NCBI GenBank assembly: GCA_004321845.1
Contig: SHBL01000002.1
Coordinates: forward strand, 1-45,083
Source: SAR86 cluster bacterium
GTDB lineage: Bacteria; Pseudomonadota; Gammaproteobacteria; Magnimaribacterales; TMED112
Length of the DNA stretch: 45,083 nt
Reading direction: 5' to 3'
Shown here: in pieces, positions 7,815-41,994 of the stretch
Numbering within the stretch: position 1 is the stretch's first letter
Layout of the letters: every line of letters starts with the position of its first letter
Translations under genes and position numbers: made by a program
Notes under the pieces: generated by a model
Databases searched by the model: none
What the model was told of the DNA's origin: nothing
The model's input: the letters and a program-made list of their open reading frames with translations, nothing else

Positions 7815-8445
7815 TTACATAGCTATTGAAGGACCAATTGGGGTAGGCAAGACCTCTTTATCAAGAAAGATTGCAATGGATTTTGGTCATGAGTTGTGTC
7901 TTGAAGAATCAGATGATAATCCGTTCTTAAAATCTTTTTATAAAGATAAGCAAAATTATGCATTTGCATCGCAATTACATTTTGTCATGCAAAGAGCACA
8001 TCAAATCAATATATATTTTTCAGACAACCTAATTCAACGAAAAATTGTTGCGGATTTTATGTTCCAAAAAGAAGATCTATTTGCTGAATTAAATCTAACC
8101 CAAGATGAATTAAAAATTTTTAAAGAAGTAAAATCAAAATTTTACCAAACTCATCCAAAACCAGATCTATTAATATATTTACAGGCATCTCCTGAAAGAG
8201 TTTTAGAAAGAGTTAATAAAAGAGCGAGATCATATGAGGATCATGTAGCTTTAGAGTATTTAGAGAGACTATGTGAGGCATACACAGAGTTTTTCTTTGA
8301 TTATTCTGAAACCCCTCTTTTAGTCTTAGATGTGAATGATGTAGATTTTGTTTCAAGTGATACAGATTACAAAAAAGTTGTCGATTGCTTAAAGCGAGAA
8401 ATCACAGGCAGAGAATTTGTAAACCTAACTCCAAGCTTTTTTTAA
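7792..8445 (+). CDS. Deoxynucleoside kinase family protein (dGK/dAK-like)
   Basis: P-loop IAIEGPIGVGKTS at the N-terminus and an arginine-rich LID-like segment RVNKRARSYED. About 217 aa, typical for the family. 23-nt overlap with pcnB. Confidence 0.75.
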   Translation: MQEDIIPNYIAIEGPIGVGKTSLSRKIAMDFGHELCLEESDDNPFLKSFYKDKQNYAFASQLHFVMQRAHQINIYFSDNLIQRKIVADFMFQKEDLFAELNLTQDELKIFKEVKSKFYQTHPKPDLLIYLQASPERVLERVNKRARSYEDHVALEYLERLCEAYTEFFFDYSETPLLVLDVNDVDFVSSDTDYKKVVDCLKREITGREFVNLTPSFF

Positions 8446-39085: not shown

Positions 39086-39653
39086 AAAAAACTTAATAGT
39101 TTATGTGCACGGGTGGAATTCTCATGCAAAGGCACGTAAAGCACAATTACTTGAAAGCGAACTTGCTAATCATGGGTTCTTTTCGTGCACATCACTAACA
39201 CTTAAGAATCACCCCAAAGAAGCTATTGAACAACTAATAGAATTTATAGAATCTAAGCAAACTGATTTTACTGTGCATCTTATAGGAAGTTCTCTTGGCG
39301 GTTACTATGCAACCTATGTAGCAGAAAAATTGAATCTCAAAGCTGCAATGATCAACCCAGCAGTATGGGCATATAAGATTTTTGAAAATGATCGAGGACA
39401 AAACGTTAACCCAAATACAGGCGATGAATATTTTATAGATCAGTCATGGATAGATAGCTTAGAAGATATCCACATTGAGAATCCAACAACTAAAAGATAT
39501 TTAGTACTACTCCAAACAGGCGATGAAACCCTGAACTATAAATATGCTGAAAAATATTTCAATGGAGCAAACATAGTTATTGATGAGGGAGGAAATCATA
39601 GTTTTGAAAATTTAGAAATTAAAATTCCTCAGATTCTTTTACATTTTTCTTAG
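39078..39653 (+). CDS. yqiA: Esterase YqiA (alpha/beta hydrolase, UPF0227)
   Basis: LIVYVHGWNS start, GSSLGG nucleophile elbow and C-terminal GGNHSF. 191 aa. Confidence 0.8.
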   Translation: MSKKNLIVYVHGWNSHAKARKAQLLESELANHGFFSCTSLTLKNHPKEAIEQLIEFIESKQTDFTVHLIGSSLGGYYATYVAEKLNLKAAMINPAVWAYKIFENDRGQNVNPNTGDEYFIDQSWIDSLEDIHIENPTTKRYLVLLQTGDETLNYKYAEKYFNGANIVIDEGGNHSFENLEIKIPQILLHFS

Positions 39654-39765
39654 TTTTTTTTGAAACTAATTGCCAATCCTTTTTAAAAATACTAAATTAG
39701 AACTGCATTGCATTTGCACCATACCCCATGGTTAAAAAGGGGTCCTTTTTAGGATATTAGTTAAA

Positions 39766-39822
39766 ATCGTTCATCTTTATGAAAGTGAAGACGGAAGTAG
39801 ACGAAAGTTGAAGGAACGCGAC
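39766..39822 (+). promoter_or_regulatory. Glutamine riboswitch aptamer (glnA RNA motif)
   Basis: RNA AUCGUUCAUCUUUAUGAAAGUGAAGACGGAAGUAGACGAAAGUUGAAGGAACGCGAC. Closing helix CGUUC (39768-39772) pairs with GAACG (39814-39818). Conserved GACGGAAGUAG (39790-39800) and GAAGGAACGCG (39810-39820). GAAA-capped mini-stem at 39800-39809. Lies 86 nt upstream of a glutamine synthetase start codon. Confidence 0.8.
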
Positions 39823-39907
39823 CGTTAAACCCAGTCGAGTTTAACTTCTATAGTGCTGCAATATAAATGCAAATATATTTTATTTATTTTTCTATAGGAG
39901 AAAAGAT

Positions 39908-40918
39908 ATGAGTGATATAAAAACTTATGAATACGTCTGGTTAGACGGTTTTAAGCCTGAGCCTTCTCTCAGGAGCAAAGTAAAAGCAACAGATCTTAGA
40001 GGTACTGATAAAGGTGAAATGAATGATAGCATGCCGCCAAAATGGTCCTTTGATGGATCTTCTACACAACAAGCTGAAGGTGGTAGTTCGGATTGTCTTT
40101 TGATACCTGTTCAAAAGTATGACAACCCTACTAATCCAGATCACTTAGTGATGTGTGAGGTATTGGCTGCAGATAGTAGCGTTCATCCATCTAATACTAG
40201 AGTTGCTGCAGCAGAAGTAGCTACAGATGAATGGTGGTTTGGTTTTGAGCAAGAGTACTTTTTTACTAATCCGGATGGCTCTCCCCTTGGATGGGAAGAC
40301 GGTGAACCAAGAGCTCAGGGTGATTACTACTGTGGTGTTGGTGCAGATAATGTAGCAGGGCGTGAAATATCAGAAATGCACTTGCAAGCGTGTCTTGATG
40401 CAGGCATAAATCTCACAGGAACAAATGCAGAAGTAGCTTTAGGCCAATGGGAATATCAGTGTTTTGGTAAAGGAGTAAAGGCTGGTGATGATCTCTGGAT
40501 GAGCAGGTACTTATTGTACAAAATAGCTGAAGAATATGGTGTTGGTGTAAACATTCACCCAAAACCAAAAAAAGGCGATTGGAATGGCTCAGGGATGCAT
40601 GCAAATTTTTCTAATGAAGAAATGAGAACTGCTGGTTCTAAAGAACTTTTTCATTCAATGTGCGATAAATTAGGTGCAGTTCATGAAGAAGGTATTGCAT
40701 CATATGGTTCAGACAATGACCAACGATTAACAGGCTTACATGAAACTCAAAAGATTACTGAGTTCTCATATGGTGTTAGTGACAGAGGGGCTAGTATCAG
40801 AATACCTGTATATACAGTTGAGCATGACTGGAATGGTTATTTGGAAGATAGAAGGCCAGCATCTAATGCGGATCCTTATAAAATCATTGCCCACATTGTA
40901 GGCACACTAACTAAATAA
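39908..40918 (+). CDS. glnII: Glutamine synthetase type II (eukaryote-like GSII)
   Basis: 336 aa; YVWLDG, WSFDGSSTQQAEGGSSDC, WFGFEQEYFF, NAEVALGQWEYQ, DWNGSGMHANFS, SYGVSDRGASIRIP and GYLEDRRPASNADPY match rhizobial/streptomycete GlnII throughout. Good RBS (AGGAGA) upstream. Confidence 0.92.
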   Translation: MSDIKTYEYVWLDGFKPEPSLRSKVKATDLRGTDKGEMNDSMPPKWSFDGSSTQQAEGGSSDCLLIPVQKYDNPTNPDHLVMCEVLAADSSVHPSNTRVAAAEVATDEWWFGFEQEYFFTNPDGSPLGWEDGEPRAQGDYYCGVGADNVAGREISEMHLQACLDAGINLTGTNAEVALGQWEYQCFGKGVKAGDDLWMSRYLLYKIAEEYGVGVNIHPKPKKGDWNGSGMHANFSNEEMRTAGSKELFHSMCDKLGAVHEEGIASYGSDNDQRLTGLHETQKITEFSYGVSDRGASIRIPVYTVEHDWNGYLEDRRPASNADPYKIIAHIVGTLTK

Positions 40919-40925
40919 CTTATTT

Positions 40926-40960
40926 AGCCTCTCACTTTACTAGTGGGAGGCTTTCTTCTT
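40926..40960 (+). terminator. Candidate intrinsic terminator for glnII (embedded in the 3' end of the convergent yibN-like gene)
   Basis: Stem AGCCTCTC (40926-40933) pairs with GGGAGGCT (40945-40952): 7 Watson-Crick pairs plus 1 G-U. 11-nt loop, followed by TTCTTCTT. Begins 8 nt after the glnII stop. Confidence 0.5.
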
Positions 40961-41336
40961 GCCAAGATATAAGGCCATCCTTTAATAGATAAACTTCTTC
41001 TATTCCAAGCTTCAAGAGCTCTACTCCTGCTCCACCTGCATCTAAGCCATTTTCTGTGATTACCACAACAGCTTTGCCTTTATTTAGAAGGTGTTCCTGT
41101 TGCCCAAAAGAGTCTTTTTGAACATTAATTGAGCCGTGAATATGACCAGATTCAAAAGAGTCTTTTTGTCTTATGTCGACAAAAATTGCATCGTTATTAT
41201 TAATTAAGTCTACAGCTTGGGAAGGAGTTATTCTTTTTCCGCCTTTACTTGTCTCGTACATGTACCATAAAACAAAGGTAATAAACAATGGTACAGATAA
41301 GTACCACCTAGAAATTAAAAAATCGAAGAAATCCAT
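40932..41336 (-). CDS. yibN: Membrane-anchored rhodanese-domain protein (YibN-like)
   Basis: N-terminal TM helix, then ITPSQAVDLINNNDAIFVDIRQKDSFESGHIHGSINV, closely resembling E. coli YibN. The usual active-site Cys loop position reads VVVITENGLDAG. Confidence 0.75.
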   Translation of the reverse strand: MDFFDFLISRWYLSVPLFITFVLWYMYETSKGGKRITPSQAVDLINNNDAIFVDIRQKDSFESGHIHGSINVQKDSFGQQEHLLNKGKAVVVITENGLDAGGAGVELLKLGIEEVYLLKDGLISWQEESLPLVK

Positions 41337-41388
41337 ATCAAAAAATTGTTTTAAGCTTATACAATATAGAGATTATTTAAAAGAAAAA

Positions 41389-41994
41389 ATGAATTCAAAT
41401 TATTTAGTTTTAGTTAGGCATGGTCAAAGTACGTGGAATGAAAAAAACTTGTTCACTGGTTGGCGAGATCCTGGTCTAACACAAAAAGGAATTGAAGAAG
41501 CTCATAAGGCTGGAATTCTGCTTAGAGACAAGGGTCTAGTATTTGACCTAATGTTTACTTCTGAGCTAGAAAGGGCTCAATTGACCGGTCAAATAATGTT
41601 AGATGAAATGGATTGTTCTGACTTGCAGACAATCAGAAATCAAAAATTAAATGAAAGAGCATATGGTGACCTCACCGGTATGAATAAAGATGAAGCAAGG
41701 GCAAAATTTGGTGAAGAGCAAATACATGTATGGCGAAGATCATACGATATTCCTCCTCCTGGGGGCGAAAGTCTTAAAGATACTTATAATCGTGCCGTGC
41801 CATATTTTGAAGAAGCTATTCTTCCAGAGTTACAAGCATCAAAAAATGTATTAGTAGCAGCTCATGGAAATTCCTTAAGAGCAATCGTTAAGCACTTGGA
41901 GAATATTTCAGAAACAGATATAGTCAAACTAGAAATAGCCACAGGCGATCCAATAATTTATACATACTCTGATGGAAGTTACACAAGAAGTTAA
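41389..41994 (+). CDS. gpmA: 2,3-bisphosphoglycerate-dependent phosphoglycerate mutase (short form)
   Basis: LVLVRHGQSTWN (RHGxxxWN) and later AAHGNSLRA histidine-phosphatase motifs. Start taken at 41389; the ORF-track start at 41173 would overlap yibN. Confidence 0.85.
   Translation: MNSNYLVLVRHGQSTWNEKNLFTGWRDPGLTQKGIEEAHKAGILLRDKGLVFDLMFTSELERAQLTGQIMLDEMDCSDLQTIRNQKLNERAYGDLTGMNKDEARAKFGEEQIHVWRRSYDIPPPGGESLKDTYNRAVPYFEEAILPELQASKNVLVAAHGNSLRAIVKHLENISETDIVKLEIATGDPIIYTYSDGSYTRS

Follow-up and report, generated by a model that had tools for sequence, protein, structure and literature searches.

The glnA motif was described in 2010, with the range 'Cyanobacteria, marine', upstream of glutamine synthetase (GS), PII and ammonium transporter (amt) genes (PMC2864571). 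Klahn et al. (2018) reported this type-1 glutamine riboswitch upstream of glnA in marine metagenomes, its effect and its taxon being unknown at that time, and established the gifB riboswitch as an ON switch (PMC6212724). Tandem glutamine riboswitches, comprising 157 doublets and 4 triplets, were compiled by Sherlock et al. (2022; PMC9481103), and in 2025 the family (RF01739 in Rfam) was listed in metagenome-assembled genomes (MAGs) of SAR86 (PMC12379486). The present analysis deals with one such element, located upstream of the type II GS gene (glnII) in 45,083 nucleotides of DNA from a SAR86 cluster bacterium (GCA_004321845.1, contig SHBL01000002.1, positions 1 to 45,083; hereafter, the window). 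A first-pass annotation of the window had suggested that its proteobacterial flanking genes would place the class outside cyanobacteria; this is not new, the marine range having been known since 2010 and SAR86 MAGs since 2025 (PMC2864571, PMC6212724, PMC12379486). The class, its association with glnA in marine metagenomes and its tandem forms are already published. The element adds a well-supported member to a known aptamer class, and its own platform is probably wired differently (OFF).

The earlier papers almost certainly counted this locus among their 'marine metagenome glnA' cases, with which it shares the aptamer family, the GS, amt and PII associations and the marine origin; those reports gave neither a taxon nor a glutamine effect, whereas here a SAR86 host, a full leader with its platform and an exclusivity with ntrBC and sigma-54 can be described (PMC2864571, PMC6212724). 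The Synechocystis gifB riboswitch has in common with it the aptamer class, the control of GS activity by glutamine and, for the system as a whole, negative feedback on GS. However, gifB turns ON the GS-inactivating factor IF17 in a cyanobacterium, while the switch in the window acts on the GS mRNA itself, and so must be OFF for the same feedback, in a heterotrophic gammaproteobacterium with a type II GS. As for the tandem riboswitches, relatives of the window carry doublets (before GS and a TonB receptor gene) and triplets (before porin-amt), but the window has a singlet derived from a doublet, and SAR86-type aptamers share one bracketing platform, X1...Y1, instead of having one each; PMC9481103 places glutamine under 'multiple expression platforms'. 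The platform made of the segments X1, X2 and Y1 and the long-range helix P0 (listed below) does not appear in PMC2864571, PMC6212724 or PMC9481103, a comparison of published descriptions and not of cyanobacterial leader sequences. A natural collapse of tandems to singlets keeping the flanking helices is reported for glycine riboswitches (PMC5066625); ligand and fold are different there, which makes it an analogy only. A literature search returned no paper linking RF01739 to the control of SAR86 glnII or to NtrBC loss.

The glutamine aptamer upstream of glnII

The aptamer and the gene downstream of it are the following:
39766 to 39822 (+), glutamine riboswitch aptamer (glnA motif, RF01739), with P1 at 39768-72/39814-18, P2 at 39774-80/39785-91 and P3 at 39800-02/39807-09
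39908 to 40918 (+), type II GS gene of 336 aa, monocistronic and followed by a convergent rhodanese gene (Pfam, NCBIfam and PDB matches)

The recognition of a glnA-motif riboswitch at 39766-39822 in the first-pass annotation, made from the letters alone, is borne out. When the window was scanned with all 4227 Rfam families (cmscan), this interval on the forward strand was the sole match above gathering score across the 45 kb: RF01739, with 62.8 bits (gathering score, 35 bits), E 1.1e-11 and model positions 1-53 of 53, not truncated. The same family was still the top match for this leader in a permissive local search. All upper-case consensus positions of RF01739 are matched (AUCGUUCA, GACGGAAGUA, GAAGGAACGC), and the window has the near-invariant junction nucleotides, CGGAAGUA and GAAGGAACGC, neither of which changes across 26 distinct SAR86-type aptamer copies. 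Counting the Rfam-type structure on these copies, 99.7% of the cells are paired; compensatory, both-sided changes occur in 6 of 13 pairs, all of them in P2 and P3. The observed score is above that of all 500 shuffles, and pairing drops to 32-52% in slid controls. No variation occurs in P1 or the junction bases among the 26 copies, which leaves P1 uninformative for covariation; the structure model scored here consists of the stems, without the pseudoknot. A covariance-model search and a look for covariation in homologous leaders had both been proposed at first pass: the former gave a score well over the gathering threshold, and the latter uncovered compensatory changes in P2, P3 and the leader hairpin H1. 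Every feature of RF01739 that can be tested in a sequence is present.

The aptamer lies in the 5' untranslated region (5' UTR), on the same strand as the GS gene, 85 nt upstream of the GSII start and 3' of a predicted promoter. A spacer between aptamer and ATG had been noted before; its length is 85 nt (39823-39907) rather than 86 nt. On sequence grounds, 39766-39822 can be assigned with next to no reserve to a type-1 glutamine riboswitch aptamer in the glnII 5' UTR of a SAR86 gammaproteobacterium. Other Rfam matches in the leader, to PreQ1 (20.5 bits), freshwater-2 (18.1) and Glutamine-II (11.9), are far below their cut-offs and were dismissed as chance.

Related loci have one, two or three RF01739 aptamers (Rfam) upstream of GS or other genes, and the nearest relatives of the window (L055, L001, L002, L005, L003, L264 and L265) have two each. 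When aligned with the tandem locus L264, with which it agrees almost completely in the rest of the leader, the window shows one clean 72-nt gap between direct repeats. Moreover, its aptamer is a hybrid: the long P2 and the P3 (GACGAAAGUU) match aptamer 1, and the tail, GCGAC-CGUUAAAC, matches aptamer 2. Because of this gap and this hybrid make-up, the singlet is, on this comparison, a one-unit (72-nt) deletion of the tandem form carried by its closest relatives, which fits the RF01739-containing deletions reported in 2025 to segregate in SAR86 populations (PMC12379486).

The leaders compared represent about 9-10 lineages, and those in the leader alignment (16 leaders) about nine. Looking up representatives of GS clusters brought mostly ntrB-type loci, L264 and L265 being the only new aptamer leaders. 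A metagenome scan with the pattern GGAACGC-N2-3-CGTTAAAC was too loose (7 of 120 stretches were real), and a scan of viral contigs for the platform gave 1 real case out of 49 (L229, of the same type as L024).

Riboswitch or NtrB-NtrC at the GS locus

Control of glnA by NtrB-NtrC and sigma-54 is the paradigm of the enterobacterial glnALG operon. Nitrogen limitation induces GS, amt and PII in the Ntr regulon of enterobacteria, NtrC activating at low glutamine. The closest 80 GS loci among one-genome-per-species contigs, together with the window, were divided according to what precedes and follows the GS gene. All 16 aptamer loci with downstream sequence lack ntrB and ntrC downstream of GS, and have directly 3' of it either the convergent rhodanese gene or, in L001, L002 and L055, amt. 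Conversely, none of the 56 loci with ntrB-ntrC directly downstream of GS has an aptamer (Rfam-checked), and additional metagenome loci show the same exclusivity. The ntrB product is a HisKA/HATPase_c kinase and that of ntrC an activator with Response_reg, Sigma54_activat and HTH_8 domains (Pfam). Furthermore, many leaders of the ntrBC type bear the motifs TGGCAT-N5-TTGCA and TGCAC-N7-GTGCA, which correspond to the established consensus sequences of sigma-54 promoters and NtrC sites, respectively.

The RNA module occupies the syntenic slot of the NtrC sites, the sigma-54 promoter and glnII-ntrB-ntrC, for which reason a replacement of the Ntr two-component system is most likely; that the module took the place of NtrB-NtrC at the GS locus of the aptamer-bearing SAR86 lineages is a reading held with high confidence. 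Both systems regulate the same gene, in response to the same signal (glutamine status) and from the same chromosomal slot in sister SAR86, but one is a protein-based transcriptional activation at low nitrogen and the other an RNA-based, probably translational, repression at high glutamine. Two points speak for caution. In a neighbour-joining tree of GS the aptamer loci are scattered over at least 3-4 places, so that the 'replacement' may stand for several events or for lateral transfer, and the patchy distribution suggests a lateral spread of the module. Moreover, the exclusivity is established at the GS locus only, not genome-wide for NtrBC and RpoN.

The glnII-ntrB-ntrC operons without riboswitch (L004, L011, L016, L017, L258 and about 50 others) have the two motifs roughly 250 nt upstream of GS, the NtrC-like sites in repeated copies; their layout resembles that of enterobacterial glnALG, but with a type II GS. 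In the window itself, a sigma-54 promoter in TGCATTGCATTTGCAC (39704-19) was considered and rejected, TG standing instead of GG and the spacing varying from 11 to 13 among lineages. An NtrC site in GCACCAT..ATGGTT was likewise discarded in favour of the RNA hairpin H1, given the compensatory changes in the latter.

The same module is found before other nitrogen genes. It precedes GS-amt in L001, L002 and L055, a TonB-dependent receptor gene in L116 (two aptamers, L116 85-187) and a Gcw_chp porin gene followed by amt in L191 (three aptamers, L191 8080-8254). Three consecutive RF01739 aptamers are also present at L183 306-480, where the porin open reading frame (ORF) downstream looks truncated, and on the 5'-truncated contig L099 PII and then amt follow the same leader. 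X1 and X2 are identical across these modules and Y1 is near-identical, with a single A-to-G change in L183/L191. The metagenome contigs concerned, whose SAR86 origin is putative, have 34-36% G+C, and the Amt of L099 is 55% identical to a SAR86 Amt. The module would then control an Ntr-like regulon of GS, amt, PII, porin and TonB receptor. With nitrogen limitation as the inducer of GS, amt and PII, the position of the module implies repression by glutamine. As NtrC activates such genes at low glutamine, an RNA replacing it should repress at high glutamine.

A wider reading, which we regard as a serious possibility while stopping slightly short of favouring it, is that a portable RNA module displaced NtrB-NtrC/sigma-54 over an Ntr-like regulon (glnII, the amt operon with porin and PII, and the TonB receptor) in several SAR86 sublineages, this module consisting of 1-3 glutamine aptamers and a single three-partner platform (X1/X2/Y1), closed by a long-range helix at the 5' terminus. 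If this were true, it would provide the first OFF-type glutamine riboswitch, as well as a clear natural case of a riboswitch replacing a two-component system during genome streamlining. The either/or with ntrBC at one syntenic slot is in itself a natural experiment on RNA sensors replacing protein regulators in streamlined genomes. SAR86 is among the most abundant heterotrophic clades of the surface ocean, and for the reading of nitrogen status in marine metatranscriptomes GS control in these lineages would be post-transcriptional and keyed to glutamine. A SAR86 carrier answers, for one large group, which organisms bear the marine glnA riboswitches, a point left by Klahn et al. (2018), and their second point, the effect of glutamine on glnA, becomes testable with a defined RNA (39750-39915). 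Knowledge of the aptamer class itself is unchanged by the window locus.

Leader architecture and the proposed OFF switch

A conserved leader of about 200 nt has the aptamer as its presumed sensor; along it, promoter, 5' strand of P0, H1, H2, X1, aptamer, X2-Y1 hairpin, anti-Shine-Dalgarno (anti-SD), 3' strand of P0 and Shine-Dalgarno (SD) follow each other:
39670 to 39698 (+), predicted sigma-70-type promoter: TTGCCA at 39670-75, 17-nt spacer, TAAATT at 39693-98 (consensus scan, 9/12)
39704 to 39722 (+), 5' strand of the long-range helix P0: UGCAUU..UUGCA.CAU, with the alternative register UUGCAUUU at 39708-15
39724 to 39742 (+), hairpin H1: CCCC (39724-27) with GGGG (39739-42), loop AUGGUUAAAAA
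39743 to 39754 (+), small hairpin H2 (UCC/GGA): CCC/GGG or CUCAA/UUGAG in most lineages; weak, 64% paired as drawn
39754 to 39769 (+), X1: flank AGUUAAAAUCG (39759-69), invariant in 16 of 16 leaders, plus the lineage-specific extension AUAUU; complementary to Y1
39823 to 39845 (+), platform hairpin A: X2 (C-GUUAAAC, CGUUAAAC, 39823-30), loop CCAGUCGA and the start of Y1 (GUUUAAC, 39839-45)
39836 to 39848 (+), switching strand Y1, CGAGUUUAACUUC: partners are X2 (hairpin A), X1 (helix C) and the aptamer 3' strand GAAGGAAC (helix B)
39845 to 39853 (+), candidate anti-SD CUUCUAUAG: 9-nt complement of CUAUAGGAG, with one G-U
39853 to 39874 (+), 3' strand of P0: GUG.UGCAA....AAUGCAA
39892 to 39900 (+), SD region CUAUAGGAG: AGGAG at 39896-39900, 7 nt before ATG

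In the leader alignment, the blocks X1, X2 and Y1 are more conserved than the aptamer stems. A TTGC(C/T/A)N -35 element, a spacer of 16-18 nt and a TAAANT-like -10 element are seen by inspection at the same place in L006, L007, L012, L024/L229, L183 and L265, and transcription is predicted to start at about 39705. The 5' strand of P0 forms perfect inverted repeats of 8 nt and 7 nt with 39865-72 and 39868-74, respectively. The helix is present in the minimum free energy (MFE) structures of both the free and the aptamer-constrained folds, as well as in the RNAalifold consensus. Its cells are 92-99% paired in the 16 leaders, with changes of the wobble type only, and pairing is kept in L116 by UUGUGAUUU/AGAUUGCAA (read by eye). 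A test of cognate versus non-cognate duplexes is not discriminating for P0, the GCAU/AUGC core being conserved, and only L116 and L183 favour their own partner. H1 is 100% paired and has compensatory changes in 2 of 4 pairs, one instance being the CCCC/GGGG of the window versus the CUCC/GGAG of L264. An alternative hairpin excluding H1 can be drawn between CCAU (39719-22) and AUGG (39728-31); lineage b (L002, L005) has only the CCAU/AUGG hairpin and lineage c (L006) only H1. The pair may represent a second switching point in the 5' leader.

The hairpin GTTAAAC/GTTTAAC at 39824-39845, already noted at first pass, is a perfect 7-bp inverted repeat (39824-39830/39839-39845), and hairpin A is invariant except for two independent A-to-G changes that keep U-G wobbles (L007, L183). 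The expression platform had been sought in the 86 nt that include this hairpin. The hairpin stands, being invariant; the proposed extent does not, given that the invariant 5' flank and the long-range helix closing the leader also belong to the platform. At the SD, GG (39897-98) is invariant in the aligned leaders and the next AG nearly so (L116 has GGGG). An exact direct repeat of 8 nt, TTCTATAG, occurs at 39846-39853 and 39890-39897, the tail of the platform recurring beside the SD, and lineage b has its own version, AACTTCTATT; because CTATAG is a palindrome, the same repeated bases give the anti-SD complementarity.

Three pairings compete for Y1. X1 and Y1 form an inverted repeat of 16 nt, 81% complementary, and the last bases of X1 are also the first two pairs of P1. 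Helix B, between Y1 and the aptamer 3' strand GAAGGAAC, appears in the MFE fold, and helix C, of 10 bp between X1 and Y1, in the RNAalifold consensus, where the P1 3' strand AACG pairs with CGUU of X2. Explicit energies for the window are -13.2 (P1 + A), -13.9 (B) and -13.9 (C) kcal/mol, and the holo form and the apo form with helix C also lie within about 1 kcal/mol in L007, L012 and L015, which makes four single-aptamer lineages with the window. The sole two substitutions in Y1 keep the pairing, as U-G wobbles, in both A and C. In these computed folds, Y1 would thus have three mutually exclusive and near iso-energetic partners, the signature of a switching sequence. In addition, the anti-SD:SD duplex CUUCUAUAG/CUAUAGGAG comprises 9 bp with one G-U (-10.5 kcal/mol) and is 81% paired in the leader alignment. 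Cognate anti-SD/SD pairs beat non-cognate ones over nine lineages (permutation p 0.007), mainly owing to the lineage of the window and a few others.

On this basis a mechanism can be proposed. Without glutamine, P1 would not be locked, and Y1 would be held by X1 (helix C, enclosing the aptamer) or by GAAGGAAC (helix B); the anti-SD CUUC(UAU) would be engaged with GAAG in helix B or with AUAUUAG in an extended helix C, leaving the SD free and GS being made. With glutamine, P1 would form, taking UCG of X1 and the GAAGGAACG strand out of the competition, Y1 would pair with X2 in the hairpin at 39824-39845, and the released CUUCUAUAG would pair with CUAUAGGAG, blocking initiation. The best explanation of the whole, favoured with moderate confidence, is a singlet glutamine riboswitch working as a translational OFF switch of glnII in the slot of the Ntr system. 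The OFF logic taken separately is likely, and the first-pass annotation had also called for it, with the 39824-39845 hairpin in the expression platform; this fits with a hairpin invariant across lineages, whose 3' arm has alternative partners including the aptamer 3' strand. The specific route through masking of the SD by CUUCUAUAG, which comes out of the modelled folds, is put forward only tentatively.

Several observations weigh against this scheme. Helices A, B and C consist of bases that do not vary, which leaves no covariation by which to decide among them, and the transcription start is a predicted one. The anti-SD complementarity shrinks to 4 bp (CUUC:GGAG) in lineages e, g and h, its pairing with the SD would be a pseudoknot relative to P0, and it has a competitor in a local U-rich/A-rich hairpin (-6.7 kcal/mol) that includes the SD region. 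Partition functions (ViennaRNA) for 21 leaders showed no consistent change in SD accessibility between unconstrained and aptamer-enforced folds, for which reason thermodynamics alone neither supports nor refutes the OFF model. Finally, about 130 nt separate the SD from the platform in the porin-amt leaders, where a different read-out must operate.

The main rival keeps the glutamine-OFF logic with a read-out other than SD masking by CUUCUAUAG, and is considered unlikely. Opening and closing of P0 could alter mRNA decay, released X1 could pair with a U-rich segment upstream of the SD, or Rho-dependent termination could occur prematurely. The poor anti-SD complementarity of several lineages and the unchanged SD accessibility in the modelling favour such a read-out, and P0 is the one extra feature common to all lineages and gene contexts. 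Immediately 5' of the SD, lineages b, d, e and i have 'UUAACUU' repeats complementary to X1, with nominal shuffle fractions of 0.02-0.07 per lineage (0.07 in d), uncorrected for 12 tests. In the window the match is weak (72% complementary) and the pairing of X1 with the SD-proximal segment is worse than in shuffles (-2.2 kcal/mol); X1 with an SD-proximal Y2 repeat as a universal read-out was consequently rejected for the window, which lacks the repeat that four lineages have. As regards termination, no terminator-like site was found in 39500-40000, where an intrinsic terminator was looked for. Hairpin A is AU-rich and followed by UUCUAUAG, A-rich spacers separate the U-runs after P0 from the helix, and Rho loading on an AU-rich, C-poor leader is unlikely from what is generally known of Rho utilisation sites.

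An ON switch as in cyanobacterial gifB, in which glutamine would open the ribosome binding site and raise GS synthesis, is improbable. It is true that the only experimentally characterised members activate expression (PMC6212724), that genes with the glnA motif were inferred to go down on nitrogen depletion in cyanobacteria (Weinberg et al., PMC2864571) and that the computed energies are compatible with either polarity. But a positive feedback on glutamine synthesis would result, and nitrogen-scavenging genes (amt, PII, porin and TonB receptor) would be under the module as well. In sister SAR86, NtrC/sigma-54, an established activator at low glutamine, governs this gene in this slot, and the CUUC anti-SD is sequestered in both apo models and freed in the holo model. 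That the element is a chance match or a decaying relic without regulatory role can be regarded as already effectively refuted, even though the window has lost one of two aptamers and deletions containing RF01739 segregate in SAR86 populations (PMC12379486). The whole RF01739 model is matched at E 1.1e-11, the aptamer stems are kept by compensatory changes, and the identical leader is found on 6 independent contigs. Moreover, the switch flanks are invariant although the GS proteins of the lineages are just 78-92% identical to that of the window, and the deletion was precise, leaving X1, X2 and Y1 intact.

Gene, host and further observations

The ORF at 39908-40918 has the Pfam domains Gln-synt_C and Gln-synt_N. 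Among NCBIfam families GlnII comes out far ahead (365.8 bits, E 2e-109, full length), though below its equivalog cut-off of 500 bits; GlnA type I reaches 45 bits and type III 38 bits. The best solved relative is 4bax (E 5e-92), presumably the GSII of Streptomyces coelicolor. The 16 best PDB matches, with chain lengths of 344-423 aa (E 5e-92 to 4e-79), are labelled 'glutamine synthetase', and we take them to be GSII-type enzymes of bacterial, plant and animal origin; longer chains, matching at only about 1e-8, are taken as GSI. A type II GS had been named from the letters alone, as had the flanking genes ubiCA, yqiBA, yibN and mutY-yggX, and both assignments agree with the families found, Pfam giving chorismate lyase, UbiA, DUF1249, UPF0227, rhodanese, HhH-GPD/NUDIX_4 and Iron_traffic for the flanks. 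The aptamer was also rightly said to lie in the only long non-coding stretch of the 45 kb: 39654-39907 (254 nt) is the only gap of at least 120 nt without an ORF of at least 30 aa. The small genes in other gaps look, from their N-terminal sequences, like those for L31, L28, S21, RpoZ and rubredoxin, and no tRNA genes were found in the window.

The G+C content of the window is about 33%. Nearly all of the 80 closest GS loci (75-92% identity) come from single amplified genomes (SAGs) or MAGs of the SAR86 cluster, in line with the gammaproteobacterial genome proposed at first pass. The exact GS protein of the window and a 100% identical leader recur in different samples, on at least 6 contigs, one of them an NCBI contig of 580 kb (GCA_045560165.1), which indicates a real locus and not an assembly artefact. 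Downstream, the longest ORF resembling phosphoglycerate mutase (41173-41994, +) overlaps the rhodanese gene (40932-41336, -) by about 160 nt; this is a longest-ORF artefact, gene calls on identical contigs starting the former at about 41389.

Some neighbouring loci deserve mention. L036, L038, L052 and L062, SAGs labelled Pelagibacteraceae, have a GSII 77-78% identical to the SAR86 enzyme, with a PII gene directly upstream and neither aptamer nor ntrBC at the GS locus; co-sorting, mislabelling or a GSII common to SAR11 and SAR86 could be the cause. At L256 1-70 (ENA contig ERZ2438728 NODE_4284), an apparent Illumina P5/Nextera adapter (AATGATACGGCGACCACCGAGATCTACAC...AGATGTGTATAAGAGACAG) is fused to the GS gene and represents contamination.

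In the porin-amt leaders (L183 ~500-640; L191 ~8274-8395), where the real SD lies about 130 nt from the platform, the intervening span contains a Y1-like UUAACUU(G)GAG, a possible upstream ORF of 6-12 codons and, ahead of a U-rich stretch, a long imperfect hairpin (CUGCAGAAAAAAAAUGC / GCAUUUUUUGUUUGCAG), which suggests a different, possibly attenuation-type, read-out. The IMES-1 RNA motif (RF02034), reportedly described from marine metagenomes without a known host, is also found on contigs of the triple-riboswitch porin-(PII)-amt type, full-length at L183 976-1164 (-), with 198 bits against a cut-off of 81, and as a 5'-cut copy at L099 1-97 (+), with 96.7 bits; these contigs might help to assign its host.

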